Position numbers and translations under genes: made by a program. The notes under the pieces were generated by a model. It was not told the origin of the DNA, did no database searches, and saw only the letters and a program-made list of their open reading frames with translations. From a bacterium (GTDB lineage: Bacteria > Patescibacteriota > Minisyncoccia > UBA6257 > UBA9933): a stretch of 59,114 bases of DNA. Positions within the stretch are counted from its first letter, which is position 1. The number at the start of each line of letters is the position of its first letter. Shown here piece after piece: positions 12,767 through 56,373 of the stretch. The stretch covers positions 1 through 59,114 of the forward strand of contig JAUYBE010000004.1 of NCBI GenBank assembly GCA_030693235.1. Direction: 5' to 3'.

Positions 12767-13024
12767 ATGAGTTATTATACATACGTATTATTGAGTCTGA
12801 AAAATAATGATATTTATATAGGTAGCGCGGAGGATTTATATGATAGAATTGATTTACATAATCAAGGCAAGGTAAAATCAACAAAAGGATATAAGCCGTG
12901 GAAATTACTTGAGCATTATGAATTTAAGTCACGAAGCGAGGCATTTAGACATGAAAAATTTTTAAAGACAGGTCAACAAAAAGAGATAATAAAAGATAAA
13001 TATGGCCAGGTAGCCAAGCAGTAA
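12767..13024 (+). CDS. GIY-YIG nuclease (small, free-standing)
   Basis: 'YTYVL.S...IYIGS...R...HN.GK.KST..YKPW.L...E....SEA...EK.LK'; stop codon lies inside tRNA-Cys. Confidence 0.93.
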   Translation: MSYYTYVLLSLKNNDIYIGSAEDLYDRIDLHNQGKVKSTKGYKPWKLLEHYEFKSRSEAFRHEKFLKTGQQKEIIKDKYGQVAKQ

Positions 13025-42274: not shown

Positions 42275-44316
42275 AGTTTTCTTACGCTTTAATAAAAAAA
42301 TTGGTTCCGGGGGTAAAAAGCAAAAAAGAACTGATTGAAAAATTAAATCTCCATTCTTTTGAAGTTGAAGACGCCGAAGGCGATGTTTTTGATGTTTCAG
42401 TTCCGCCGAACCGGTTTTCGGACGCAGGGTCGCATATGGGAATCGCGCGCGAGCTTTCCGCCATTTATAGAAAATTTTTTAAAGAACCCAAAATTACTTT
42501 ATTAAAATCTTATATAAAAAAGAGAGTCCCCGTAGTTCTAAAAACGCCTTTATGTTTTAGAATGTCGGCTTGTTATTTTGGGGAATTGCATATTGGTCCA
42601 TCGCCAAAATGGATGCAAAAAATTTTAATTGATTGCGGATTAAGATCAATTAATAATTTAGTTGATATTACAAATTATGTAACCATTGAAACTGGCCAGC
42701 CGTTGCATGCTTTTGATTTTGATAAGATGGAAGGCGGACAATTAATTATTAGAAATGCGAAAGATGGCGAAAAGGTGGAATTGCTTGATGGCGTTGAAGT
42801 ATTTTTAAAATCAGACATAGCTGTTCTTGCGGATTTAAAAGGAGCGCTTGATATAGCTGGTATTAAAGGCGGAAAAAAAGCGGAAATAAGCAAAAAAACA
42901 AAAAATATTTTACTTACATCGGGCAATTTTGATGGCGTAAGTATTTATAAAGCTTCTCGGAAAACGAAAATAAGCACTGATGCATCGCTTAGATTTTCTC
43001 ATGATATTAGCCCTGAGCTTGCAAGTATTGGTATTAATAGAGCGGGAGAGTTAATTAAAAAATTGTGCGGGGGAAAACCGGGTATTTTAGTTGATATATA
43101 TCCAGAAAAACAACGGAAAAAAATTATTAAGTTTGATCTGGAAAAATTCAATAAATTCATCGGACTGGATTTAGACAGCCAGACCATTAAAAATTATTTA
43201 AATTTATTAGGATTTCAATTTCCGCGTCAGTCCGCGTCAAGTTCGCGTAGTTCCGCGTTTCTGGTGGAGGTTCCTCCTCTTCGCCAAGACATTGAAACTT
43301 TTGAAGATTTGGCTGAGGAAATAGCAAGGCTTTATGGCTATGATAAAATCAAATCAACGCCGGCGCTTATTCGTCTGATTCCTTCCGGTTTTGAAGACCA
43401 GATTATTTTGAAAGATAAAATCAGAAAAATTTTATCCGGCATGGGATTAAGCGAAGTGTATAATTATTCCTTCATATCGCAGACAGATGCGGACAATATG
43501 CAGACAAACGTAGACAGTCCGCGTTGGTCCGCGTTGAGTCCGCGTAAGTCCGCGTTGGTGGAGTTGGAAAATCCTATCAGCGCTCAATTCAAATATCTCC
43601 GCCCTTCTTTAGCAAGTCATCTTTTGGAAAATATTAAAAGTAATTCGCGATTTTTTGACGAGATAAAGATTTTTGAAATCGGAAAAGTTTTTGATAAAAC
43701 GGAAGAAAAATTAATATTGGGCATAGCCATGGCTTCTAAAAATAATCCGCCGGCTGGCGGAGACGAAATGTTTTTTGAAGCGAAGGGCGTTATTGAGCGG
43801 TTATTCAAAAAAATCGGGTTGGTTGATTTTTTAATGAAAGAATCGAGAAGTGGGAATTTGGAAATTAAATCTGGCGATAAAATAATCGGTTTCATAAATC
43901 ATTTAGAATATAAGGGTATTTTAGCGGAGATAGATTTAGATTCCTTACTAGAATTAGTGGTTGAAGAGCGCGAATATCGTCCTTTGCCTAAATATCCTTC
44001 AATAATGCGCGATATTTCGATTTTGGTTGAACAGACGGCGCGAGTCGGCGAAATAATGCAAGCAATCCAAGAAATTGATTTGGAATATATCGAAGACGTT
44101 GATTTGATGGACGAATACGACTTAATCGCGGACCAACGCGGAAAAGGTCTGCGTAAGTCAGCGTTAAGTCGGCGCGAGTCAGCTGTAAGGAGAAGCCTTA
44201 CATTCCGGATTGTTTTTCAAGCCGAAGATCGGACTTTAACGGACGATGAAGCCAATAAAGAAATGGAAAAAATTTCCAAAATGCTTAAAATAAAATTTAA
44301 AGCGATTATTAGATAA
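42271..44316 (+). CDS. pheT: phenylalanine--tRNA ligase beta subunit (short form)
   Basis: PPNR.D, INNLVDITNYV.IETGQPLHAFD, D.AEEIARLYGY, LRPSL, FDX-ACB C-terminus. Confidence 0.95.
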   Translation: MKFSYALIKKLVPGVKSKKELIEKLNLHSFEVEDAEGDVFDVSVPPNRFSDAGSHMGIARELSAIYRKFFKEPKITLLKSYIKKRVPVVLKTPLCFRMSACYFGELHIGPSPKWMQKILIDCGLRSINNLVDITNYVTIETGQPLHAFDFDKMEGGQLIIRNAKDGEKVELLDGVEVFLKSDIAVLADLKGALDIAGIKGGKKAEISKKTKNILLTSGNFDGVSIYKASRKTKISTDASLRFSHDISPELASIGINRAGELIKKLCGGKPGILVDIYPEKQRKKIIKFDLEKFNKFIGLDLDSQTIKNYLNLLGFQFPRQSASSSRSSAFLVEVPPLRQDIETFEDLAEEIARLYGYDKIKSTPALIRLIPSGFEDQIILKDKIRKILSGMGLSEVYNYSFISQTDADNMQTNVDSPRWSALSPRKSALVELENPISAQFKYLRPSLASHLLENIKSNSRFFDEIKIFEIGKVFDKTEEKLILGIAMASKNNPPAGGDEMFFEAKGVIERLFKKIGLVDFLMKESRSGNLEIKSGDKIIGFINHLEYKGILAEIDLDSLLELVVEEREYRPLPKYPSIMRDISILVEQTARVGEIMQAIQEIDLEYIEDVDLMDEYDLIADQRGKGLRKSALSRRESAVRRSLTFRIVFQAEDRTLTDDEANKEMEKISKMLKIKFKAIIR

Positions 44317-44343
44317 ATGACAATAATTTAACTTAATGATATA

Positions 44344-45738
44344 ATGATATTTATTAATATAAAAAAAGGGTTCGCCCTCATCGAACTCCTCATCGTCATC
44401 GGCATTATCGCGGTTTTGGCCACAGCCGTAGTCGTTGTCATGAATCCGATGGAATATTTCAAAAAATCCCGAGACTCAACCAGAATGTCCGAACTCCAAA
44501 CAATCAACAAGGCTTTAGGTCAATATCTGGCAGACGGAAAAACCTATTTAGGCGAAACCAACAAGGTTTATGTTTCTATTCCTGATAATGCTTCCCAAAT
44601 CTGCGCCAGTTTGGGTTTACCTGCTTTACCCACAGGCTGGGAATATCGCTGTTCCAATTCCGCCAATTATCGGAAAGTTGATTCCACCGGCTGGATACCC
44701 GTCCCTTTCACCTCTATCTCCTTTGGCTCAAACTTAGCAATCCTTCCCATTGACCCTGTCAATACTACTTCTACTGGAGAATACTATACTTATATCACTG
44801 ACGGCTCTTGGGAACTCAATGCGATTTTAACTTCAGACAGATATAAGGCTAAGGCTCAAAATGATGGCGGCGACTCTGACAATGCTTTTGAAACTGGCTC
44901 AGCCGCCGGCTTGGCTCTGACGCCTTTAACTTTCCCTCATAACTGGATAAAGGTTGATAATTTTTGGGTGATGAAATATGAAGCCAAATATTCAAAAACA
45001 GGCAGTGGCGCCAGCGATGCTTCAACAGTCAATTGCGTGGCTGATTCAGGCGACGGCCTTGACTGGAGAGATTCCGGCTGCAATGATTCCACCAAAGTAG
45101 TTTCTTCTCCTTATGGTTCTCCTGTGGTCCATATTACCCATAATCAGGCGAAAACCGCTTGCCAGACAATCGGCGCTCGTCTTATTATTAATCAAGAATG
45201 GATGACCATTGCCCGAAATGCCGAACAAGTTGGCTCAAACTGGTCAGGCGGTTCAGTTGGTTCGGGTTGTCTTTTTAGGGGCAATGTTGGTTCAAATGCC
45301 TGCGGCTACAACGGCGCTGACCCGGAAAAAGGAATTTACCGCAACGCTAAAGCTAAACTTGTTCTTTCTAATGGCGAAGAAATTTGGGACATTGCCGGCA
45401 ATGTCTGGGAACACGTGATGAAAGACGCTAATGACACTTTGGTAAGATACACCCCAAGCGATGGCGGAGCTGTTGGTTGGCGCTGGATTGAACATACGGC
45501 CATAACAGGTTACGGAGACCTTTCTTATAATGAAATCAGGCCTTCGAATTCTTCCTGGAACGCCACCCATGGAATGGGAAGAGTTTATACTTATAACGGC
45601 GATTACGGTAGCGCTTCTCGTGTTCTCCTCCGCGGCGGCAATTGGGTTTATGGCGCGGACGCCGGGGCTTTCACGCTGACATTGAGTTGGGACACGACGT
45701 TTCAGAACAACTTTGTGGGTTTCCGTTGCGCCCGGTAG
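44344..45738 (+). CDS. DGR target: type IV prepilin N-terminus plus C-type lectin (FGE-sulfatase-like) domain
   Basis: KKG|FALIELLIVIGII prepilin motif; 'FWVMKYEA', 'DIAGNVWE', C-terminal 'RGGNW...GAF.L.L.W.....N.VGFRCAR'. Confidence 0.92.
   Translation: MIFINIKKGFALIELLIVIGIIAVLATAVVVVMNPMEYFKKSRDSTRMSELQTINKALGQYLADGKTYLGETNKVYVSIPDNASQICASLGLPALPTGWEYRCSNSANYRKVDSTGWIPVPFTSISFGSNLAILPIDPVNTTSTGEYYTYITDGSWELNAILTSDRYKAKAQNDGGDSDNAFETGSAAGLALTPLTFPHNWIKVDNFWVMKYEAKYSKTGSGASDASTVNCVADSGDGLDWRDSGCNDSTKVVSSPYGSPVVHITHNQAKTACQTIGARLIINQEWMTIARNAEQVGSNWSGGSVGSGCLFRGNVGSNACGYNGADPEKGIYRNAKAKLVLSNGEEIWDIAGNVWEHVMKDANDTLVRYTPSDGGAVGWRWIEHTAITGYGDLSYNEIRPSNSSWNATHGMGRVYTYNGDYGSASRVLLRGGNWVYGADAGAFTLTLSWDTTFQNNFVGFRCAR
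45620..45737 (+). repeat. DGR variable repeat (VR)
   Basis: 118 bp, gap-free alignment to 46698-46815 with 10 mismatches, 9 opposite TR adenines. Confidence 0.96.
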
Positions 45739-45822
45739 TCGTGTAGAAATCTTAAATCTTTAATCTTTTCCCCCGTCGTCATTGCGAGGCGATGAAATCG
45801 CCGAAGCAATCTCTCAACGGTT

Positions 45823-46113
45823 ATGAACCGAAAACAATACTGCATTTACATTATGACTAATAAAATAAACACCGTTTTTTACACCGGGGTTACCGGCAAT
45901 CTACCGAGACGAGTATACGAGCATAAAAACAAACTGGTTGAAGGATTCACCAAAAAGTATAACATTGTAAAATTGGTTTATTACGAAGTTTTTGACAGTC
46001 CTGAAGCCGCCATTCAAAGAGAAAAACAAATTAAGGGCGGTTCCCGGAAAAAGAAAATAGACTTAATTAAAAGTATTAATCCAGAATTTAAGGATTTAAG
46101 CGATTCTCTTTGA
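45823..46113 (+). CDS. GIY-YIG nuclease flanked by family B repeats
   Basis: 'YCIYIMTNK....YTGVT..L.RRVYEHK....GFTKKYN..KLVYYE.......AI.REKQIKGGSR.KK..LI...NP...DL'. Confidence 0.95.
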   Translation: MNRKQYCIYIMTNKINTVFYTGVTGNLPRRVYEHKNKLVEGFTKKYNIVKLVYYEVFDSPEAAIQREKQIKGGSRKKKIDLIKSINPEFKDLSDSL

Positions 46114-46287
46114 GATTGCTTCGGGCTAAAGCCCTCGCAACGACGATAATAGTTGTCATTGCGAACGAAGTGAAGCAATCTCATGGAATTGCCACGGGCT
46201 AAAGCCCTCGTAATGACGAAAAAGAGTGTCATTGTAAGGCACGAAGTCCCGGAGCAATCTCATCCTAGTAATGACAAAATAGCCAAA

Positions 46288-46632
46288 ATGCTTCAAGATT
46301 TAATAATTTATCAAAAGACCTACGATTTTATGCTCCGGCTCCATCCGGTCGTGAACAAATTTCCCAAAAGCCAGCGGTTCGTTTTGGGCCAGCGGATAGA
46401 AAATAAAACTCTTGACCTGCTACACTCGATGATCGTCGCAAACGCCGAGCGGGATAAATCAACGATGTTGCGAATGGCCAGCGTGGAATTGGATGAACTG
46501 CGAATATTGATTCGGCTTGCCAAAGATTTGCGTTTTGTGAACATAAAGCAGTATGAAATTATGGCCGAGCGAATGAATGAAATCGGAAAATTATTGTACG
46601 GGTGGATGAATAAATTTCCCCGCGCGGCGTAA
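46288..46632 (+). CDS. avd: DGR accessory variability determinant (Avd)
   Basis: 114-aa basic four-helix bundle 'L.IYQK.YD.......V.KFPK..RF.LG..I', between target and TR. Confidence 0.9.
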   Translation: MLQDLIIYQKTYDFMLRLHPVVNKFPKSQRFVLGQRIENKTLDLLHSMIVANAERDKSTMLRMASVELDELRILIRLAKDLRFVNIKQYEIMAERMNEIGKLLYGWMNKFPRAA

Positions 46633-46697
46633 TTTGTTTATAATAAAAAAGTTCCTAATGGAACGGGGATAAGGGCTACACAACGGTGTCTTCATGT

Positions 46698-46815
46698 GTG
46701 TTCTCCTCCGCGGCGGCAATTGGGATAATGGCGCGAACGCCGGGGCTTTCACGCTGAACTTGAATTGGGACACGACGAATCAGAACAACAATGTGGGTTT
46801 CCGTTGCGCCCGGTA
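46698..46815 (+). repeat. DGR template repeat (TR)
   Basis: Nine AAY codons in the VR frame; lies between avd and RT. Confidence 0.96.
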
Positions 46816-47085
46816 CTCATCACAATATATAACTTGAAACTTTAAGATTCAAGAAATTGGCCCGAACAAAGTATCCACGGATACGAGTCTGTATGCCAAA
46901 ACGACTACTGCCCTTATTCCCTCTTTTCGGATTTTCCGAAGGGAAAATATAAATCCCTACCACTTGTTTGTTATTTCGCTTTTTTAGAAACATTTAAAAG
47001 GGCGCGTCCCAAATAAGAATGCTTGCGGAATAGTTAATTTATGGGACATAATTATTCCGTGGGCAAGGGATTTCTTGTTTTTAAA
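46816..47085 (+). ncRNA. TR-RT spacer, probable structured 3-prime part of the DGR RNA
   Basis: 270-nt largely non-coding spacer with hairpins (GTATCC-AC-GGATAC; TTCGGA-TTT-TCCGAA); position matches the DGR sp region. Confidence 0.45.
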
Positions 47086-48072
47086 ATGTCCGATTTATTT
47101 TTAAAAGTTTTTGATTTTGCCAATCTTCACCGGGCATATAAGGGCGCCCGAAAATGCAAACGCTATCGCGGTTCGATTTTGAAGTTCGGTTACGACCTGG
47201 AAGAAAATTTATTAGCTTTGCGGACGGAATTGGCGAGTAGAACTTATCGGCATGGCGGTTACCGCGAGTTCATAGTCGCTGATTCTAAAAAGCGGACTAT
47301 TAAAGCGGCTCCGTTTCGCGACCGGGTAGTTCACCACGCTTTATGTAATATTATTGAGCCGATTTTGGAGAGGGGATTTATTTATGATTCATACGCTTGC
47401 CGTGTTGGCAAAGGGACGCATGCCGCGATCGTTCGGCTTGAAGGTTTCATAAAAACTTTGCCGGTAAAAATTTATTGCCTCAAATGCGATATTTCCAAAT
47501 ATTTTGACAATATAAACCACGAAATACTTTTGGAGCTGTTGCGCCGCAAAATAAAAGATGAAAATGTTTTGTGGTTGCTTAATGAAATAATAACAAGCAA
47601 TACAAAAGGCATACCCATAGGAAATCTTACGAGCCAAGTATTTGCTAATGTTTATTTGAACGAACTGGACCATTTTGTGAAACGGATATTGCGCGAGAAA
47701 TGCTATATCCGTTATATGGACGATTTTCTTATTTTGGGGTTGGATAAAAAACATTTACAGGAGGATAAGGAGAGAATAAGAATTTTTTTGCGCGATAGGT
47801 TGAAACTTGAACTGCATCCCAAGAAAGCGGAAATTTTTCCGATTGACCGAGGCATTGATTTTCTGGGATATGTTGTTCGCGGCAACCGTCGTCTTTTGAG
47901 AAAATCGACGGTTAAGCGGTTTCTGAAAAAGAGAAAACGATACGCGGCGCTTTTTCGCAAGGGTAAAGTATCTGAAGCGTTTATCTGCAACACATATGCT
48001 TCTTGGCATGGATACGCGAGCTTTGCCAATTCATATAAATTAATGGAGAAACTTGGATTGAATAAGCTATGA
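47086..48072 (+). CDS. DGR reverse transcriptase
   Basis: 'APFRDRVVHHA', 'LKCDISKYF', GIPIGNLTSQVFANVYL, RYMDDF, GIDFLGY. Confidence 0.96.
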   Translation: MSDLFLKVFDFANLHRAYKGARKCKRYRGSILKFGYDLEENLLALRTELASRTYRHGGYREFIVADSKKRTIKAAPFRDRVVHHALCNIIEPILERGFIYDSYACRVGKGTHAAIVRLEGFIKTLPVKIYCLKCDISKYFDNINHEILLELLRRKIKDENVLWLLNEIITSNTKGIPIGNLTSQVFANVYLNELDHFVKRILREKCYIRYMDDFLILGLDKKHLQEDKERIRIFLRDRLKLELHPKKAEIFPIDRGIDFLGYVVRGNRRLLRKSTVKRFLKKRKRYAALFRKGKVSEAFICNTYASWHGYASFANSYKLMEKLGLNKL

Positions 48073-48081
48073 GGAGCGAAG

Positions 48082-48963
48082 CTACGTTTTAGCTATCACC
48101 ATGGCGATTATTTTTCCAGCGCAGTTTTTTTTCAAAATTCTTACCGCTTCATTAATAGTGGCGCCGGAAGTAAAAACATCGTCAACTAAAATAATATTTT
48201 TCCCTTTGATAAAATTTGGGTTTTTGATTTCAAAACAACCGGAAATATTTTTTATTCTTTTTTCAAAATCTTTGAGTTTTGCCTGGGGTTTGTTGTTTTT
48301 GATTCTTTTAAGCCCGTCGATAAGCGGCAAGTTAAAATGGCGGGCTGTTATTTCGGCTAATAATTTCGCTTGATTGAAACCGCGTTCGCGCTCGCGGCCG
48401 GGATGGAGGGGAATGGGAACAATAAGATAGCCAGAAAGCCATCTTTCTATGAGAACCGGCGTTGCGGCTACTCCAGCGGTAGCCGCCCGCCTGCGCTCTC
48501 GCTCTGCCGACTCCTTACTTCGCTCGGAGACCAAGCTCGGCAGAGCTCCGAGAGCTTCTCTACGAAAGATGGCTTTCTGGCCTTGCTGGTTAATGGTAAA
48601 TGACAAATTCGATAAATATTTTATGAGAATTTTTCCTAAAATCGGAGCCAAGTTTTCAAAGCTTTTGTATTTGAAATAGTGAATTAAATTCTGTAAAACC
48701 GGGTCGTCGTAATTTCCGGCCGCCGCCAATAAATAATAAGAATGACTGCAGATTTTTTTGTTTTCCGCCAATCGGGCCCGACAAATCGGACAAAATAAAG
48801 TGTTATTAAGTTTGATAAGATTAAGGCATTGTTCACAGATAAATTTTCCGCGTAAGTCCGCGTCGTTTTCCGCGTTGGTCAGCGTCTTGTGGCAATTTAC
48901 GCAGATGGGCGGGAAGAGGATATCCAGAACAATATTTTTAAGTTTGATTAAAAACAGGGACAT
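48082..48963 (-). CDS. comF: ComF-family phosphoribosyltransferase-like competence protein
   Basis: N-terminal CxxC zinc ribbons, 'PIPLH..R.RERGFNQA', 'LVDDVFTSGAT'. Confidence 0.92.
   Translation of the reverse strand: MSLFLIKLKNIVLDILFPPICVNCHKTLTNAENDADLRGKFICEQCLNLIKLNNTLFCPICRARLAENKKICSHSYYLLAAAGNYDDPVLQNLIHYFKYKSFENLAPILGKILIKYLSNLSFTINQQGQKAIFRREALGALPSLVSERSKESAERERRRAATAGVAATPVLIERWLSGYLIVPIPLHPGRERERGFNQAKLLAEITARHFNLPLIDGLKRIKNNKPQAKLKDFEKRIKNISGCFEIKNPNFIKGKNIILVDDVFTSGATINEAVRILKKNCAGKIIAMVIAKT
48431..48580. mobile_element. 150-bp MITE-like insertion, in frame within comF
   Basis: Perfect 17-bp terminal inverted repeats CCAGAAAGCCATCTTTC / GAAAGATGGCTTTCTGG; 50 codons, frame preserved. 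Confidence 0.7.
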
Positions 48964-48980
48964 AGTATAATTATATTATA

Positions 48981-50057
48981 ATGTTTGATTCCATAAAATC
49001 GTTAATCGGCATTCAATCTTATCTCGGCGTAGATATCGGAACCACTTCAATTAAAATGGTGGAAATTTCCAAAGGCAAACGGCGGCCGAAAATTGAAAAT
49101 TACGGCGTCTTGGAAAGTTACGGCCATTTGGAACGCATCAACGACGCCATTCAAACCGCCGGTTTGAAAATAATGGAAAAAGAAGCCGCCGAGCTTTTGA
49201 AACTGCTTTTAAAACAACTGAAAATCAAATCAAGGGAAGCGATTGCTTCAATTCCCGCTTTTTCGGTTTTTATCACTTCGTTGGAAATACCGGAGATGTC
49301 CGAGGTTGATATGGCGAAAACGATGTCATTCCAGATCAGCCAGCATATTCCTTTACCGGTTCAGGAAGTTGCCATTGAATGGTTGAAAATCGGGGAAAGA
49401 GATGACGAAAGCGGATTCACCAAGCAGCAAATTTTGGTAATTTCCATACCCAATGAACTGATTTCAAGATACAAAACCATTTTTAAATTAGCGGGTCTTA
49501 AATTAAAAGCTTTGGAAGTGGAAAGTTTGAGTCTGGCAAGGGCGCTTGGCGATAATAATCCGGCGCCGTCTTTGCTTGTTGACATTGGCGGCCGTTCCAC
49601 CAATATTTCAGTTGTTGAAAAAGGTTTTCTGAAGTATAATAATCATACTGATTTCGCCGGCGGTTCTTTGACTCAGGCGATTTCAAGCGGTTTGAACATT
49701 AATATCAGAAGGGCGGAAGAATTGAAGAAACAGAGAGGTCTTTTGGGAGCCGGAGGAGAGTTTGAGTTATCCACATTAATTTTTCCCTTTTTAGATGCTA
49801 TAATAAATGAAGCGAACAGGGGAAGAACCGTTTTTGAAAAAAATCAGGGAGTAAAAATTGAACGAGTTTTGCTGGCCGGCGGCGGCGCCAATCTTTTAGG
49901 CATTGAAAAATATTTTGAGGAGCAGATAAATTTACCGGTAACCATCGGCAATCCATTTTTAAAAATGGAGTATCCGGCAAGAATAGAACCGATGGCAAAA
50001 GAATTGGGTCCGAGTTTTTCCGTTGCTATTGGATTGGGGATAAAGGAGTTTGTATAA
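48981..50057 (+). CDS. pilM: type IV pilus assembly protein PilM
   Basis: LGVDIGTTSIK, VDIGG..T actin-like motifs, GGGA. Confidence 0.93.
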   Translation: MFDSIKSLIGIQSYLGVDIGTTSIKMVEISKGKRRPKIENYGVLESYGHLERINDAIQTAGLKIMEKEAAELLKLLLKQLKIKSREAIASIPAFSVFITSLEIPEMSEVDMAKTMSFQISQHIPLPVQEVAIEWLKIGERDDESGFTKQQILVISIPNELISRYKTIFKLAGLKLKALEVESLSLARALGDNNPAPSLLVDIGGRSTNISVVEKGFLKYNNHTDFAGGSLTQAISSGLNINIRRAEELKKQRGLLGAGGEFELSTLIFPFLDAIINEANRGRTVFEKNQGVKIERVLLAGGGANLLGIEKYFEEQINLPVTIGNPFLKMEYPARIEPMAKELGPSFSVAIGLGIKEFV

Positions 50058-50064
50058 ATTTGGT

Positions 50065-50610
50065 ATGCAATACACTAAATCGATTTTAGAGGAACAATTA
50101 AAAGCCGGCGAAAGATTGCCGGTCGGCTGGCCTTGGCGGCTTTTGCTTTTTACCGCGGTCGTTTTCGGCATCGTGGTTTTTCTTTATTTTGGAATGGTTT
50201 TCGGTTATAAACCCTTTTTAGATTCAAGAGCGAAAGGATTGGATAAAGAAATTGCCAGCTTGACGGATTCCATCGGCGAAGAACAGCAAAAGGATTTTAT
50301 CAATTTTTATTCTCAATTGGTCAATATTCAGGATTTATTGGCGAATCACGCGGCCGCTTCGAAACTTTTCGATTTTCTGGAAAAAAATACCCATCAGCAA
50401 GTCAATTATCTTTCTTTGAATTTATCTTTGACGGAAAAAAATTTAAAACTTGACGGCAGCGCGCCTGATTATAAAGTTTTGGTTCAGCAATTGGAGTTGT
50501 TCCGCCGGGCGCCGGAAATCAATCAGATTTTTTTGGAAGATTCAAAACTGGGAGAAGGTAGTATTCGTTTTTCCATTCGGTTGATGTTTAAACCGGAGTT
50601 AGTGATATAA
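50065..50610 (+). CDS. PilN-like protein
   Basis: TM, coiled coil, ferredoxin-like 'L.LDGSA..Y..L..Q'; follows pilM. Confidence 0.7.
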   Translation: MQYTKSILEEQLKAGERLPVGWPWRLLLFTAVVFGIVVFLYFGMVFGYKPFLDSRAKGLDKEIASLTDSIGEEQQKDFINFYSQLVNIQDLLANHAAASKLFDFLEKNTHQQVNYLSLNLSLTEKNLKLDGSAPDYKVLVQQLELFRRAPEINQIFLEDSKLGEGSIRFSIRLMFKPELVI

Positions 50611-50650
50611 TTATTCGTATATTCGTATTTATTCGTTATTCGGTGATTTT

Positions 50651-51220
50651 ATGAAAGCTTCAAATAAAAGAATTTTAAGCATCTTAACGGCGATTCTGAT
50701 GATTATCGCTTCGCTTTTTGTTTACAGCTCTTTGATTCGTCCGGTTTATTCGGAAATTAAAAATTTGCGAGCCGAAGTCGCCGGCCGGCTCGATTTGATT
50801 AACAGAAACAAAGCTTCAATAGAGCAGGTCCAAAAACTTTTAAGCGAATACCAAAGTATTTCTCAAGCCAAAGAAATGACTTCTTTGGTTTTATCGTCGG
50901 AACAAAATATTTCTCAAGCGGTTAATCAGGTTGTCGGCTTGGTTGGTTTAAACAGTTTATCCACGGAACTTTTGGCTGTTCAGCAATTAGCCATAAAACC
51001 TTCGGCTCAGCCGAATTTGGTGAAGGGAGTGGGAGTTTTGAGATTTAATCTTCGGTTGGTGGGTAATTACGAAAATTTTAAAAAATTTCTTCAAAATTTG
51101 GAAACTAATATAAATTTAATGGATTTGGCGAGTTTGAAAATCGAATCAGCTGGGAAAATTAAGGGCGGCGATAGTTTATCCTACACAATGATTATTGACA
51201 GTTATTATCAGGCGAATTAG
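50651..51220 (+). CDS. PilO-like protein
   Basis: TM, coiled coil, 'L.G.YENFK.FL..LE...RL.D' type motif. Confidence 0.78.
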   Translation: MKASNKRILSILTAILMIIASLFVYSSLIRPVYSEIKNLRAEVAGRLDLINRNKASIEQVQKLLSEYQSISQAKEMTSLVLSSEQNISQAVNQVVGLVGLNSLSTELLAVQQLAIKPSAQPNLVKGVGVLRFNLRLVGNYENFKKFLQNLETNINLMDLASLKIESAGKIKGGDSLSYTMIIDSYYQAN

Positions 51221-51226
51221 TGAAGC

Positions 51227-51310
51227 TTTTAGGTTTTAGCTTTTAGGTTTTAGATAAATAATAAAATTTCTAACACCTAACACCTAACACCTAACACCTA
51301 ACACCTAAAA
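51227..51310. repeat. heptamer hairpin (GGTTTTA)n...(TAACACC)n
   Basis: Same structure at 51600-51650, 53408-53481, 55785-55846, 57792-57903, 58377-58472, 58973-59007. Confidence 0.9.
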
Positions 51311-51313
51311 TTC

Positions 51314-51601
51314 ATGGCTATTGTAATTCAAGAAGAAAGAAAAAAAATTAATTGGTTCGTGTTGAGCGCGATTCTTTTAATAGCGGCGACGATTGTCGGA
51401 GTAATTTATTATTTGTTTTTTGTCAAACCTTCTTTAATTGAAAAAGTGGCGCCGTTGAAGCTCCAATCAATTAAAGAAATTTCTTCAATAAAATTGGATC
51501 CGGGAGCGGTTATTGATAACCCGCGTTTTCAAATTCTCAAGCAATACGCGCATCCGATAGAAATCGGACCAGTCGGAAAAAGTAATCCGTTTATAAGATA
51601 A
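51314..51601 (+). CDS. small membrane protein of T4P cluster
   Basis: TM helix, C-terminal 'G..NPF'. Confidence 0.7.
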   Translation: MAIVIQEERKKINWFVLSAILLIAATIVGVIYYLFFVKPSLIEKVAPLKLQSIKEISSIKLDPGAVIDNPRFQILKQYAHPIEIGPVGKSNPFIR

Positions 51602-51653
51602 GGTTTTAGGTTTTAGTTTTTAGCGAATTACCTAACACCTAACACCTAAAAAA

Positions 51654-53396
51654 TTGGATAATAAAACTTTTCTTCAGGAATTAATAAAACAAGGATTTTT
51701 AACGGAGGATATAGCCAAGAAACTTCTTCAAGAATCTTCTTTGACTCGGAAAAACGCCGAAGAGTTGATTTATGAGCGCCGGCTTATTGACGAAGAAATA
51801 TTGGCGAACGCGAAAAGCCGGATTTTAAGCGTTCCTTATAAAAAAATAAAAATTGAAGAAATCGATGACGAACTTTTAAAGCTCATTCCGGAAGAAACTG
51901 TCAGGAATTATAAGGTTATTCCTATCAGCCGTTCAGCCGACACCGTAATCGTCGGAATGCTTTATCCCGATGACGCCAAAGCTTTGGACGCTTTGAAATT
52001 CATCGCCAAGCAGCTGCGGATAAATCTCGGCGTTTATTTAATCACTCGGTCTGAATGGGAAACGATGTTGAGGCGTTATTCTCCTTATCGAGGCGAAGTT
52101 GACGCCGCGGTCAGGTCGCTTAATTTTTCATCCAGCCGTAATCAGACCGCGACTCAAAAAATTATTCAATTAGAGGAAGGAGCGTCTGTTTCCGAAGAAG
52201 CGCCGATTATCAAAATAGTCGCTTCAACTCTTAAAGAAGCGGTTTGGCAAAAAGCTTCGGATATTCACATCGAACCCCAAAGAAATCGGTTGCGAATCAG
52301 GTTTCGAATCGACGGCGAGCTTCAAGAGGTTTCTTCTTTGCCGATTGAGCTTCATCAGCCGATTGTTTCCCGCGTTAAGGTTCTTTCAAATTTAAAAATT
52401 GACGAGACTAGAATTCCCCAGGACGGCCGTTTTCGGACAGTGCTTTTTGGCCGGGACATTGATTATCGGGTCGCTACTTTTCCAACGCCGGTGGGCGAAA
52501 AAGCCGCCATTCGGGTTTTGGATCCGATTACCGGCTTAAAGGGATTGGAAGAATTGGGATTAATAGGAAGAAATTATCAGATTGTCAAAGAGGGAATTAA
52601 AAAGCCTTATGGAATGGTTTTAATCACCGGACCGACCGGCTCGGGAAAAACCACCACTCTTTACGCCATAATGCAGATTCTCAACAAAGAAGGAGTTAAT
52701 ATTGTCAGCTTGGAAGATCCGGTTGAATATTTTATTGACGGTTTAAACCAGTCTCAAGTACGGCCGGAAATCGGCTATGATTTCGCTTCGGGCTTGCGGC
52801 AGATTCTTCGCCAAGACCCGGATATAATTATGGTCGGCGAGATTCGAGATACTGAAACCGCCGGCTTGGCGATTCACGCAGCTTTAACCGGCCATATCGT
52901 GCTTTCAACCCTTCATACCAACAATGCTCTCGGCGTAATTCCGCGTTTGATTGATATGAAAATCGACCCGTTTTTAATACCCGCTTCTTTAAATTTAATG
53001 GTGGCTCAGCGTTTGGCGCCCAAGCTTTGCCAGGAATGCAAAAAACCGGAAAAAGCTCCGGAAAAAATTCAGGAAATAATCAAAAAGGAATTGGAAAAAT
53101 TGCCGGCTGTCATTGCGAACGAAGTGAAGCAATCTCATAAAGAAATGAATATCTACCATTCTCCCGGCTGCAAAGCCTGTCAAAATAAAGGCATTAGCGG
53201 CCGCGTTGCCTTGTTTGAAATCTTGCAAATGACTCCCGAGCTTGAGGATATTGTTAATTCTTCGCCGACCGAACACCGAATTCTTGAAGAAGCGCGGCGC
53301 CAGGGGATGATTAGTTTGCGCCAGGATGGCATTTTAAAGGCGCTGGAAGGATTAATTTCAATTGAAGAAGTGTTGAAGGAAACGACGGAAGTGTGA
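51654..53396 (+). CDS. pilB: type IV pilus assembly ATPase PilB/GspE
   Basis: ASDIHIEP, PQDGRF, GPTGSGKTT, LRQDPD..MVGEIRD, tetracysteine motif; TTG start. Confidence 0.95.
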   Translation: MDNKTFLQELIKQGFLTEDIAKKLLQESSLTRKNAEELIYERRLIDEEILANAKSRILSVPYKKIKIEEIDDELLKLIPEETVRNYKVIPISRSADTVIVGMLYPDDAKALDALKFIAKQLRINLGVYLITRSEWETMLRRYSPYRGEVDAAVRSLNFSSSRNQTATQKIIQLEEGASVSEEAPIIKIVASTLKEAVWQKASDIHIEPQRNRLRIRFRIDGELQEVSSLPIELHQPIVSRVKVLSNLKIDETRIPQDGRFRTVLFGRDIDYRVATFPTPVGEKAAIRVLDPITGLKGLEELGLIGRNYQIVKEGIKKPYGMVLITGPTGSGKTTTLYAIMQILNKEGVNIVSLEDPVEYFIDGLNQSQVRPEIGYDFASGLRQILRQDPDIIMVGEIRDTETAGLAIHAALTGHIVLSTLHTNNALGVIPRLIDMKIDPFLIPASLNLMVAQRLAPKLCQECKKPEKAPEKIQEIIKKELEKLPAVIANEVKQSHKEMNIYHSPGCKACQNKGISGRVALFEILQMTPELEDIVNSSPTEHRILEEARRQGMISLRQDGILKALEGLISIEEVLKETTEV

Positions 53397-53486
53397 TATA
53401 CTTAAACAGGTTTTAGGTTTTAGTTTTTAGGTTTTAGATGAATTTTTTTCTAACACCTAACACCTAACACCTAACACCTAAAAAAC

Positions 53487-54557
53487 TTGGACTACAAACA
53501 GAAACTCAACGATCTATTATTAACCACGGCTCGGCAAAACGCGAGCGATTTGCATTTGGCGGTCGGTAGGCATCCGACCCTAAGAATAGACAGCGTTTTA
53601 ATTCCCTTAAGCAAGGAACCGCTTTTAACTCCGGAAACGGCGGATAATTTAATATTCAATCTTCTGACGCCGGAACAAAAAGACAGTTTTTTGCGGGAAA
53701 AAGAAATTGATTTTTCTTACAGCTTTGAAGATAAGGCTCGTTTTCGGGTAAATGTTTTTTATCAGCGGGGGTTTGCGGCGGCGGCTTTGCGGTTGATTCC
53801 GGCTCAAATTAAAACAATTGAAGAATTGGGTTTGCCGCCGGTTCTTTATGATTTTGCCAGGATTTCCCAAGGTTTTGTTTTATTGGTCGGTCCGGCCGGC
53901 CATGGAAAATCAACCACTTTGGCGGCGATTCTCGATGAGATTAACCATAAAAAAACAGATCATATTATCACAGTTGAAGATCCGATAGAATATATCTTTA
54001 CTCAAGACAAGTGCATTATTTCCCAGCGTGAAGTGAAAAGCGACACGTTGGATTTTCATAGGGCTTTGCGTTCGCTTTTGCGTCAGGATCCGGACGTTAT
54101 AATGGTTGGCGAAATGCGCGACGCCGAATCGATTGCCACGGCAATGACCGCGGCTGAAACCGGACATTTGGTTTTTTCCACTCTTCATACCAATTCGGCA
54201 TCGCAAACCATTGACAGGATTATTGACAGCTTTCCGGCTGAACAGCAAAATCAGATTGCTTCGCAATTAGCGGCTGTTTTAGTCGGAGTTATTTCCGAGC
54301 GTTTGATTCCTAAAATTGACGGCGGCCGGATACCGGCTTGCGAAATAATGATCACTAATCCGGCTATCCGCAATTTAATCCGGGAACGGAAAGCTTATCA
54401 AATTGATTTGGTAATCGAAACGTCCATTCAAGAAGGAATGATGACGTTGAATCGTTCTTTGGCGAATTTGGTAAAGAAGAAAGAAATTTCATTGGAAAAG
54501 GCGGAACTGTATTCATTGAATCCGAGCGAGTTGAGGATACTATTGGAACGTAGTTAA
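53487..54557 (+). CDS. pilT: type IV pilus retraction ATPase PilT
   Basis: ASDLHL, GPAGHGKSTT, EDPIE, LRQDPDVI.VGEMRD, TLHT; TTG start. Confidence 0.95.
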   Translation: MDYKQKLNDLLLTTARQNASDLHLAVGRHPTLRIDSVLIPLSKEPLLTPETADNLIFNLLTPEQKDSFLREKEIDFSYSFEDKARFRVNVFYQRGFAAAALRLIPAQIKTIEELGLPPVLYDFARISQGFVLLVGPAGHGKSTTLAAILDEINHKKTDHIITVEDPIEYIFTQDKCIISQREVKSDTLDFHRALRSLLRQDPDVIMVGEMRDAESIATAMTAAETGHLVFSTLHTNSASQTIDRIIDSFPAEQQNQIASQLAAVLVGVISERLIPKIDGGRIPACEIMITNPAIRNLIRERKAYQIDLVIETSIQEGMMTLNRSLANLVKKKEISLEKAELYSLNPSELRILLERS

Positions 54558-54558
54558 A

Positions 54559-55767
54559 ATGAAATACAAATACAACGCTAGAACTCAAGAAGGGGAATTG
54601 CAAACCGGTTTTGTTGACGCCGCCAATCGCGAAGCGGTAACCAATATTTTAACCGGCCACGGCCTTTTTATTTTAAGCCTAGAAGAAGCGGAAAAACTTC
54701 GCCGGTTTGACAGAATTTTGGGATTTTTTAACAGAGTCAAGATTAATGACTTAATGATTTTTACCCGTCAATTCGCGACTTTGATGGAATCAAAAGTGCC
54801 GTTGAGCGACAGCCTGAGAACTCTTCACAAGCAAACGAGAAATATTATTTTAAAAGAAGCGATTTTTGGAGTTTCTTCCGATATTGACGCCGGTTTGTCT
54901 TTGTCCCAGGCAATGGAGCGCCAAGGAAAAATTTTTTCGGAATTTTACATTAATATGATTCGTTCGTCCGAAATTACCGGCCGTTTGGAAGAAGCGATGA
55001 CTTTTTTGGCTGACTACATAGACAAAGAATCAATGTGGCGTTCGCGCATCAGGAATGCCTTAATTTACCCGATAATCGTGATTGTTTTGTTTTTGGGCGT
55101 GGCTATTGTGATGCTGACCACGGTTTTTCCCCAAATCGCGCCGATTTTTGAGGAAACCGGCACAGAGTTGCCTTTTCTTACCAAGGTTTTTTTAACTAGC
55201 GGCGGCTTTATACTGGAATGGTGGTGGGCGATTATTTTAATATTGATTCTTTTGGCTTTTTTGCTGGTTGATTATTTTCAAAGCGATGAAGGGAAAATCG
55301 TCGCCAATGAATTGGCGATAAAAATTCCGATTTTCGGAAATTTATTCAAGAAAATTTATGTGGCGCGTTTTGTCGAGTCGGTGTCGATTTTAATAAAAGG
55401 CGGTATTCCGATTACTCAAGCGATCGAAGTTTCCGGCCACGCGATAGGCAATATCGTTTATCGGGATATTCTGCATGAAGTGGCGGAAGGCGTCAGGGGC
55501 GGGGAATTGCTGTCAACTCTTTTGTCCCAAAAAGAATATTATTTTCCGGCTTTGGTCGGGCAAATGATTGCTATCGGCGAATCCACCGGCCGGCTTGACG
55601 AGACCTTATTGAGAATTTCAAGTTTTTACACCCGGGAAGTCGATGACGTGTTAAGCAATTTAACGGAATTGGTTCAACCGATTTTAATCGTGGTTATCGG
55701 CGTTTTCGTCGGATTGTTATTTGCTTCGGTTTTGATTCCGATATATAATTTAGCGCAGGCATTTTAA
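54559..55767 (+). CDS. pilC: type IV pilus platform protein PilC/GspF
   Basis: Two GspF domains, 'FTRQFATL', 'ALIYP', 'GE.TG.LD'. Confidence 0.94.
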   Translation: MKYKYNARTQEGELQTGFVDAANREAVTNILTGHGLFILSLEEAEKLRRFDRILGFFNRVKINDLMIFTRQFATLMESKVPLSDSLRTLHKQTRNIILKEAIFGVSSDIDAGLSLSQAMERQGKIFSEFYINMIRSSEITGRLEEAMTFLADYIDKESMWRSRIRNALIYPIIVIVLFLGVAIVMLTTVFPQIAPIFEETGTELPFLTKVFLTSGGFILEWWWAIILILILLAFLLVDYFQSDEGKIVANELAIKIPIFGNLFKKIYVARFVESVSILIKGGIPITQAIEVSGHAIGNIVYRDILHEVAEGVRGGELLSTLLSQKEYYFPALVGQMIAIGESTGRLDETLLRISSFYTREVDDVLSNLTELVQPILIVVIGVFVGLLFASVLIPIYNLAQAF

Positions 55768-55849
55768 AAGGTCGAATATTAAAATAGGTTTTAGATTTTA
55801 GAACCTAACACTTAACACCTAACACCTAACACCTAACACCTAAAAACTA

Positions 55850-56290
55850 ATGAATAAAAAAGGTTTTACCTTAATTGAAATTTTAATAGTGGTCGCCATT
55901 ATCGGGCTTTTATCTTCGGTGGTTTTGGTTGGTTTGGGTTCTTTCAGGGCTCGGGGTCGAGACGCGCGCCGCTTAGCTGATTTGCGTCAAACCCAAAACG
56001 CTTTGGAGCTCTATTACACAAAATATGTAAAATACCCGGCTCTTGGCGGCGGTGATAGTTGGTCGAGTTTGACAAAGAGCTTAGTTGACGCCGGTATTGG
56101 AGTTTCAACAATATCAGATGATCCGCTTTCTCCCGATAAAATTTATCTTTACGGCGTTGCTGGCGACGGTCAGAATTACGTTTTGGCGGCTACTTTGGAA
56201 GACGCCGGAAACCCGGCCCTTAAAAACGATCCTGACGGCAGTATTTATGGCATTGATTGCGCTGATCCAAGATTCTGCGCCCAGTTTTAA
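55850..56290 (+). CDS. type IV pilin (probable major pilin / GspG-like)
   Basis: KKG|FTLIEILIVVAIIG; 'RD.RR..DL..Q.ALELYY'. Confidence 0.92.
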   Translation: MNKKGFTLIEILIVVAIIGLLSSVVLVGLGSFRARGRDARRLADLRQTQNALELYYTKYVKYPALGGGDSWSSLTKSLVDAGIGVSTISDDPLSPDKIYLYGVAGDGQNYVLAATLEDAGNPALKNDPDGSIYGIDCADPRFCAQF

Positions 56291-56373
56291 AAAAGTTAAT
56301 TGCAAGATTGAAAGATTGCAAGATTGAAAAATTAAAAAAATAATCTTTAAATCTTTCAATAGGTAATTTTTCA

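Follow-up and report, generated by a model that had tools for sequence, protein, structure and literature searches.

Introduction

Diversity-generating retroelements (DGRs) are established, and enriched, in bacteria of the candidate phyla radiation (CPR; Patescibacteria), but where the proteins that they rewrite are located has been left open: CPR DGR targets are typically without recognisable transmembrane or other domains, and their membrane-bound status was not settled (PMC8144416). Most of these targets 'remain entirely uncharacterized' (PMC8867640), and a 'GspG-type pilin' stands among the scarce domains that hold a variable region (PMC11661182). Here we ask what is rewritten, and where it would be displayed, in the case of a DGR at positions 44344-48072 of contig JAUYBE010000004.1 (assembly GCA_030693235.1). 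The whole contig stretch of 59,114 nucleotides is called the window below, and all positions refer to it.

Our overall reading, to which we give a probability of about 0.8, is that a canonical DGR in a CPR genome (probably Paceibacteria-type, from groundwater) rewrites the lectin head of a modular type IV pilin-like target protein. The DGR itself is ordinary. The interest rests on the class of the target and on the presence of the DGR and a pilus machinery on one contig.

A complete retroelement with an adenine-specific repeat pair

A repeat search returned one direct repeat of 121 nt (45620-45740 and 46698-46818, spacing 1078 nt, 91% identity), the sole strong one in 43000-49500. Base-by-base comparison at the 1078-nt offset sets the homology borders 118 nt apart in both copies (Table 1). 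The borders are sharp, as 13 of the 20 positions before 45620 are mismatched and the copies diverge again past 45737. Within the 118 nt there are ten mismatches, nine of them at adenines of the downstream copy, whereas 92 of 93 non-adenine positions are the same in both; the tenth mismatch, C46759 against A45681, lies beside an A-to-C change. The concentration of mismatches on its adenines identifies the downstream copy as the template repeat (TR), which makes the upstream copy the variable region (VR). With 25 adenines in the TR, the hypergeometric probability of at least nine of ten mismatches falling on A is 2e-6, and a chance repeat was rejected on this figure together with the presence of all DGR protein components.

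The adenines are placed where they change the protein. All 25 occupy codon positions 1 or 2, and of the 15 in-frame variable codons nine are AAY (Y, pyrimidine) and none can mutate to a stop, which gives the VR a theoretical repertoire of ~1.6e14. Seven codons are altered between TR and VR, namely D435V, N436Y, N439D, N446T, N448S, N453F and N457F. A preliminary description of this DNA had reported the 118-bp alignment with its ten mismatches, nine at TR adenines, and the seven changed codons; the former is reproduced base by base and the latter list matches exactly.

The same description gave the gene order as target-[GIY-YIG]-avd-TR-RT on one strand, which is what the sequence holds (RT, reverse transcriptase). 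The open reading frame (ORF) of avd is open from 46183. Its Pfam bAvd domain begins only at residue 40, so the true start is probably the ATG at 46288 rather than 46183. The protein scores 108.3 bits with NCBIfam DivGenRetAVD, against an equivalog cut-off of 80. The best match of the RT in the PDB is 8ub7 (209 bits, E 7e-61), which we take to be the Bordetella enzyme bRT, the database label reading only 'Reverse transcriptase'; this match lies far above those to group II intron and retron RTs. The RT carries the DGR signature [I/V/L]GxxxSQ as IGNLTSQ and the catalytic RYMDD (YxDD). Also conserved in the RT alignment are the equivalents of bRT Arg74 and Ile181, residues that promote adenine mutagenesis (PMC7826257). 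With intact ORFs, catalytic motifs, an Avd above its cut-off and an A-specific TR/VR pair, the earlier claim of a complete DGR holds, and the locus is confirmed as a complete canonical DGR, as judged from its intact RT, Avd and TR/VR and its conserved, putative cis elements.

Table 1. Coordinates of the DGR, its target and neighbouring features in the window
Feature	Positions	Strand	Basis or remark
DGR target, modular type IV pilin-like protein, 464 aa	44344-45738	+	Pfam N_methyl aa 7-29, FGE-sulfatase aa 199-464
Class III prepilin leader MIFINIKKG, predicted PilD cleavage after G9	44344-44370	+	alignment to solved pilins
Alpha-1 pilin helix, aa 10-63	44371-44532	+	AlphaFold2 model and PDB profile matches
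Carrier domain, ~aa 64-199 (~140 aa)	44533-44940	+	pLDDT >90; C87 and C103 invariant in family
VR, final 39 codons of target	45620-45737	+	10 mismatches to TR, 9 at TR A
VR-flank motif GTAG-A-AATCT-N2-AATCT-N2-AATCT	45743-45766	+	6 nt past target stop codon
Palindromic dispersed-repeat copy (ATTGC..GGCGAT-GAA-ATCGCC..GCAAT), left of GIY-YIG gene	45781-45810	+	folding
Small GIY-YIG nuclease gene, 96 aa, between VR flank and avd	45823-46113	+	Pfam GIY-YIG, E 3.5e-17
Dispersed palindromic repeats, right of GIY-YIG gene	46115-46261	+	direct and inverted repeat search
avd, DGR accessory four-helix-bundle protein, 114 aa from probable start ATG 46288	46288-46632	+	Pfam bAvd, E 5e-27
TR	46698-46815	+	25 adenines, 9 AAY codons
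Probable DGR RNA spacer stem-loop, ~40 nt past TR, followed by conserved ACTACTG and TTATTCC blocks	46858-46898	+	covariation
DGR reverse transcriptase, 343 aa	47041-48072	+	Pfam RVT_1
ComF-like phosphoribosyltransferase gene, neighbour outside DGR	48082-48963	-	Pfam Pribosyltran and DZR_2; TIGR00201 comF below cut-off
Type IV pilus operon: pilM, pilN, pilO, small ORF, pilB, pilT, pilC, pilin, pilD, three pilin-like ORFs	48981-58973	+	Pfam PilM_2, T2SSE (twice), T2SSF, N_methyl, Peptidase_A24

The target joins a prepilin signal to a lectin-fold head

The target begins MIFINIKKG/FALIELLIVIGIIAVLATAVVVV (the slash marks the predicted cleavage site), with Gly at position -1, Phe at +1 and Glu at +5 (E14). 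Its scores of 23.9 bits with Pfam N_methyl and 25.1 bits with TIGR02532 exceed the respective cut-offs of 21.2 and 16.3, in agreement with the class III signal KKG/FALIE noticed in the preliminary description. A prepilin-signal expression run across the window hits the target and the pilin at 55850, and nothing else. The PDB matches of target residues 1-200 (phmmer) and of a family profile are exclusively type IV pilins or pseudopilins. The profile, made from 49 family N-termini, matched 21 PDB sequences, all aligned over the alpha-1 part only; the matches include those of Geobacter, Thermus, Pseudomonas and Neisseria, Streptococcus sanguinis PilE1 and GspG; mature residue 1 of the solved pilins always aligns to residue 10 (F) of the target.

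An AlphaFold2 model built from a 31-sequence alignment has a mean predicted local distance difference test (pLDDT) score of 88.5 and a predicted template modelling (pTM) score of 0.85. It consists of a 52-residue alpha-1 (helices 12-32 and 35-63), an alpha/beta domain at residues 64-199 and a C-terminal head. A Foldseek search with the whole model places the Thermus aquaticus DGR variable protein TaqVP (5vf4) first (E 5e-7), followed by formylglycine-generating enzymes (FGEs) and Mtd of Bordetella phage BPP-1. These matches of the modelled head and the pilin-only matches of alpha-1 bear out the pilin-lectin fusion described earlier, and they support a target in which a type IV prepilin signal and alpha-1 helix are fused to a C-type lectin (CLec)/FGE-fold head that holds the VR. 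The head is not an FGE enzyme. In the alignment to Streptomyces FGE the segment C-HDSY-C, with the catalytic cysteines of the C-terminal loop ahead of GFRCA, stands opposite V-YGADA, and no Cys lies between R430 and C462; this candidate was rejected since the catalytic cysteine pair is absent and the likeness is one of fold. A phage tail-fibre DGR was likewise rejected, given the prepilin signal of the target and surroundings free of phage genes.

The stem and carrier of the target recur with other heads. A full HMMER scan of residues 1-202 (44344-44949) against 1.84 billion representatives returned 955 clusters at E<=1e-30, with a shared module spanning residues 8-195 and top matches mostly of ~400-430 aa. 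Among the ten top matches that were scanned, six carry a concanavalin A (ConA)-like lectin (Laminin_G_3) and three carry other heads, including one Kelch/TIG and one InlB B-repeat head. Pilin stem and carrier together look like a swappable-head pilin system in CPR bacteria. A separate observation comes from the assembled Logan contigs of three groundwater runs used for a population check of the VR, one of which holds the strain. In that run contig depth over 44344-44843, the 5' part of the target gene, is 130-295 against ~40 for the rest, and a 1567-nt contig whose depth (42.9) is similar to the latter aligns with 44638-44793 at 84% identity. The sample, and possibly the genome itself, thus probably contains paralogues or relatives with the same carrier module.

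The target family is diversified in nature

More than 1,300 homologues of the target were found by a word-indexed search, nearly all combining N_methyl with FGE-sulfatase. Those with named sources come from Parcubacteria/Paceibacterota, Wolfebacteria and similar CPR bins and are mostly Paceibacteria-type; they are annotated as 'prepilin-type N-terminal cleavage/methylation domain-containing protein' or 'type II secretion system protein'. The nearest relatives of both RT and target are all metagenome-assembled genomes (MAGs) of CPR bacteria.

We compared 80 loci from species-representative genomes, of which 51 have the pilin motif and 36 of these at least 2.5 kb of downstream sequence. In 23 of these 36 testable relatives avd and RT follow directly past the target. 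Across the TR/VR pairs of 23 relatives, mostly at least 75% of the mismatches lie at TR adenines (17/17, 18/18 and 22/23, for example).

A test for natural variants used three clusters at least 90% identical internally, whose members are relatives 46-65% identical to the target. The cleanest cluster has 14 sequences that are 95-99% identical; its 13 columns with at least three residue types all fall in the last 42 columns, where the entropy is 0.70 bits against 0.011 elsewhere. The target family is diversified in nature: differences among near-identical members of the three clusters are almost restricted to the VR.

Some genomes hold several genes of this kind. One MAG has seven pilin-CLec copies (L018, L036, L039, L041, L045, L069 and L075) and another has L023, L053, L057 and L074. 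Many of the multi-copy genes lie at contig ends, without an adjacent RT. One DGR may act on them as remote targets, or the assembly may have broken at repeated VR/TR sequences.

Conserved non-coding elements

TR and VR share a GC-rich 3' end, past which the two sides differ. An AATCT-type flank motif follows the VR in 18 of 24 TR/VR pairs and the TR in none of the 24. Of 70 relatives, 27 have a relaxed form of it, ATCT-N3-4-ATCT, in the 120 nt that follow the target stop, whereas random background windows contain it at a rate of 0.76%. The motif remains on the VR side of the GIY-YIG insertion. It could be either a VR-specific recognition element, similar to the initiation of mutagenic homing (IMH) sequence, or an avd promoter.

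The stem-loop past the TR is conserved in structure. RNAalifold on 12 loci gives 13 pairs, seven with compensatory changes; pairing holds in 92% of cells, and covariation scores 0.535. Slid controls reach 26-44% and no more than 0.13, respectively. The aligned region, with the stem-loop and the invariant blocks, is 46858-46924 in the window, 12103-12166 in L001, and its equivalent in ten other loci. In this CPR clade the stem-loop probably forms the spacer domain of the RNA that the DGR produces. In L024, L040 and L049 additional hairpins are inserted within the post-TR spacer.

Another hairpin, at 45781-45810, was not counted as a DGR-specific element. It lies 45 nt past the VR, its z-score is only -1.58 in a 90-nt context, and it belongs to a dispersed repeat. 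The 11-nt core of that repeat, GAAGCAATCTC, has 14 matches in the window at no more than one mismatch, with 1 expected; its sites include 19142, 27661, 45803, 46112, 46172 and 53126. For the gapped pattern of the 45781-45810 palindrome as a whole, no second copy was found at up to three mismatches. An Rfam scan of the window returned tRNAs only. A sigma-70-like sequence (11/12) at 44317-44345 overlaps the start codon of the target, so that its placement is hard to interpret as a promoter.

A GIY-YIG gene inserted beside the VR

The GIY-YIG gene of the cassette has palindromic repeat copies on both sides. Over the right-hand copies (46115-46261) contig depth reaches 272, compared with ~40-46 elsewhere, and the repeat family is thus high-copy in the source metagenome. 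Genes or remnants of this kind also lie past the target stop in relatives, at L030:3562-3843, L043:2083-2337, L047:11538-11791 (truncated) and L020:5933-6046, which makes five separate genomes with the present one. The 1.10 Mb of related loci hold only five GIY-YIG matches, of which four, from two subfamilies, are placed within ~60-200 nt past a target stop; taking 80 zones of 300 nt in 1.1 Mb, we estimate the chance of such placement at ~1e-6. The spacer between target and avd takes up other cargo too: a second Avd-like four-helix-bundle protein in L024 (3629-3985) and, with likeness judged by eye, a PemK/MazF-like gene in L035 (8545-8934) and an XRE-type helix-turn-helix gene in L030 (3953-4234), beside the GIY-YIG gene of that locus.

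Highly conserved DNA is the usual neighbour of free-standing homing endonucleases. The GIY-YIG gene and its palindromes are most likely a selfish, homing-endonuclease-like insertion beside the conserved VR end. Alternatively, the nuclease could be a working accessory of the DGR that, for example, nicks near the VR end to aid integration of the complementary DNA (cDNA). The recurrence of four of the five matches close past target stops, from two different subfamilies, would fit such a role, and the integration step at the VR, which to our knowledge is not understood in any DGR, leaves room for an accessory. We nevertheless regard it as very unlikely. Most DGRs of the clade have no GIY-YIG gene, the gene here is bordered by a repeat family dispersed in the window and high-copy in the metagenome, and unrelated cargo sits in the same spacer in L024, L030 and L035. 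Moreover, the 3' end of the VR is conserved DNA, the typical neighbourhood of a homing endonuclease, and the window has a second small GIY-YIG gene (12773-13000) beside a tRNA.

The neighbouring pilus operon and the ComF-like gene

A full type IV pilus (T4P) gene set, including the prepilin peptidase PilD, lies 1-11 kb from the DGR. The pilin of the operon (55850-56290, 146 aa) has the signal KKG/FTLIE. The pilD gene (56374-57291), 10.6 kb downstream of the target gene, encodes A24_N_bact and Peptidase_A24 domains, and the three minor pilin-like ORFs are at 57288, 57864 and 58416. The products of pilN and pilO are PilN-like and PilO/GspM-like; the operon also gives weak matches to GspM, ComGE and ComGF, and its small ORF is a membrane ORF. 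Between DGR and operon, the ComF-like protein is ~60 aa longer than the family model, with a charged low-complexity stretch at about residues 125-180 (...SERSKESAERERRRAATAGVAATP...) between the zinc ribbon and the phosphoribosyltransferase domain. This extra stretch may be an in-frame insertion.

Activity of the retroelement and display of the target

By analogy with the DGR of Bordetella phage BPP-1, avd-TR-RT would be transcribed, the RT-Avd complex would copy the TR RNA into cDNA with misincorporation opposite adenines, and the 3'-terminal VR of the target would be exchanged for this cDNA. Up to 15 codons, nine of them AAY, would be recoded, giving ~1e14 variants without stops, and the VR would encode the ligand-binding surface of the CLec/FGE-fold head. 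The target would be inserted in the membrane, cleaved after G9 by PilD and displayed outside the cell, probably at the T4P tip, as bulky heads do not fit the shaft. Both the processing by PilD and the incorporation into the adjacent pilus are inferences. The outcome would be a rewritable adhesin on the cell, which might, hypothetically, serve host recognition by an episymbiont.

The observations that weigh against this reading concern both the activity of the DGR and the display of its product. In the run that holds the strain the VR has a single haplotype: one contig at ~40x spans the VR, the other mapped contig is the TR, and no VR variant contig is present, which is weak evidence either way since contigs drop rare variants. 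A search for RNA runs found none. The GIY-YIG element and its palindromic repeats, inserted between the VR flank and avd, separate VR and avd by 550 nt, and there is the one non-adenine difference between TR and VR. These points could be explained if the DGR were complete in sequence but inactive in this lineage, the VR being the frozen product of earlier homing. We consider this improbable. The ORFs are all intact and have their catalytic motifs, the conserved RNA stem-loop and the flank motif are intact too, and the identity of 92 of 93 non-adenine positions implies that homing was recent relative to drift. A single non-adenine change is within the bRT error rate reported in PMC7826257. An insertion at the same place is also compatible with A-specific mismatches in relatives, which number 12/13 in L030 and 10/13 in L043, both with a full GIY-YIG gene, and 19/22 in L047, where it is truncated. 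DGR activity is shown for relatives by the almost wholly VR-confined variation in three clusters. At the locus itself, called apparently active in the preliminary description, the DGR may be active; the A-specific mismatches, the constancy of non-adenine positions, the sharp borders and the intact genes and RNA elements would point to it.

As to display, target residues 1-202 modelled alone (pLDDT 88.7) gave no Foldseek match in the PDB with E <2. The carrier domain is therefore without significant structural match to solved pilin heads, and the pilin identity rests on the signal and alpha-1. Position -1 is Ser (SFTLIEL) or Ala in most family members (L002 and L007-L009, for example), residues that are unusual there for PilD substrates. 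The target of this locus keeps the canonical Gly, while pilin-like ORFs of the window itself carry Ala (NKA/FTTIE, LKA/FTIVE); this use of Ser and Ala suggests a relaxed specificity of PilD in these bacteria. T4P machinery genes lie within 10 kb of the target in just two of the 51 pilin-type relatives (L029 and L016), and this ~4% is roughly the proportion expected by chance when a 10-kb operon is placed in a genome smaller than 1 Mb. In L001, the nearest relative (61% identity), pheT is missing upstream and pilM downstream. A physical link of the DGR to comF-pilMNO-pilBTC-pilD, as put forward in the preliminary description, thus stands as an adjacency in this contig, with pilM starting at 48981, but the comF-like gene is on the minus strand and the synteny does not extend to most relatives. 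The closeness of DGR and pilus operon is probably incidental.

These findings bear on a second alternative, in which the class III signal serves to export and anchor the target, and the protein is not polymerised but displayed on the membrane or a short pseudopilus, like archaeal sugar-binding proteins with class III signals or the pseudopilins of the type II secretion system. The restriction of pilin likeness to signal and alpha-1, the usual lack of linkage to T4P genes, and the many CPR proteins with varied heads on the same carrier, which could be a general surface-display device, all speak for it. We judge it unlikely, if less so than an inactive DGR. The window encodes the whole T4P machinery, the ATPases for extension and retraction and the minor pilins included, and Glu+5, which is needed for filament assembly, is invariant across the family. 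In models of the modular pilins of S. sanguinis, moreover, the bulky heads can be accommodated at the pilus tip only (PMC8179133).

Returning to the reading of a pilus-borne, rewritable lectin, we tentatively extend it, at somewhat less than even odds, to the wider group. Paceibacteria-type CPR bacteria would display a DGR-rewritable lectin at the T4P tip, on a carrier that also takes non-variable heads (ConA-like lectin, Kelch/TIG). As a side possibility, GIY-YIG genes would home at the VR end or assist cDNA integration.

Relation to known systems

The DGR of phage BPP-1 (mtd-avd-TR-brt) is alike in its order target-avd-TR-RT, its adenine-specific changes from TR to VR and its Avd partner. 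Its VR likewise sits at the extreme C-terminus in a C-type lectin fold, and its RT is the 209-bit match with the same signature residues. That element is phage-borne, whereas the one here is cellular, and its target is a tail-fibre protein without the prepilin signal seen here. Further differences are the GIY-YIG gene between VR and avd and the AATCT-repeat flank in place of the arrangement of IMH and hairpin. The best structural match, T. aquaticus TaqVP (5vf4), also has a CLec fold with a C-terminal VR.

The preliminary description held that DGRs are common in CPR bacteria, in line with the CPR/Patescibacteria DGRs of clade 2 (Roux et al. 2021, PMC8144416). Lineage, groundwater biome, cellular setting and the CLec/FGE-type target are shared with these. 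Unlike the targets described there, the present one and its more than 1,300 homologues have a clear class III prepilin signal. Treponema TvpA and Legionella LdtA reach the outer membrane, or are displayed there, as lipoproteins (PMC8867640), whereas the target here uses a prepilin signal.

Modular pilins offer a second comparison. PilB and PilC of S. sanguinis, with a von Willebrand factor A head and a ConA-like lectin head, respectively, also graft a binding module on an N-terminal pilin module (PMC8179133, PMC9934059), and the carrier of our target is also fused to ConA-like lectin heads, the head type of PilC. Here, in contrast, the head is of the FGE/CLec type and rewritten by a DGR, the carrier is without structural match to solved pilin heads, and incorporation into a pilus is predicted. 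The architecture IPR012902-IPR005532 is listed for eight proteins, uncommented, in Dataset S1 of PMC8179133. In Bacteroides, DGRs diversify type V pilus tip adhesins, so that there too a DGR varies the C-terminal CLec-type surface of an adhesive pilus subunit (bioRxiv 10.1101/2024.11.15.621889). The subunits of type V pili start as lipoprotein precursors and are joined by protease-mediated strand exchange, in contrast to the type IV carrier with a class III signal in an ultra-small CPR host.

A literature search, with Paul et al. 2017 outside its scope, found no analysis of DGR-diversified type IV pilins, and Wu et al. 2018 do not mention pilins. The target belongs to a large CPR family that is catalogued yet uncharacterised, and it is a scarcely described, pilin-type DGR target.

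Implications

The locus gives an answer, at the level of sequence, to the question of where a CPR DGR target is located: a variable lectin on a class III signal and carrier should be exported and displayed through the T4P pathway. The vague idea of an 'attachment protein' thereby becomes testable. Further handles on the DGR mechanism in this clade come from the motif beside the VR, the covarying stem-loop and the repeated insertion of GIY-YIG genes. If the reading is true, this would be the first case in which DGR hypervariation is shown on a type IV filament, and the target would be a concrete candidate molecule by which ultra-small episymbionts locate, or change, what they attach to, be it cells or particles.

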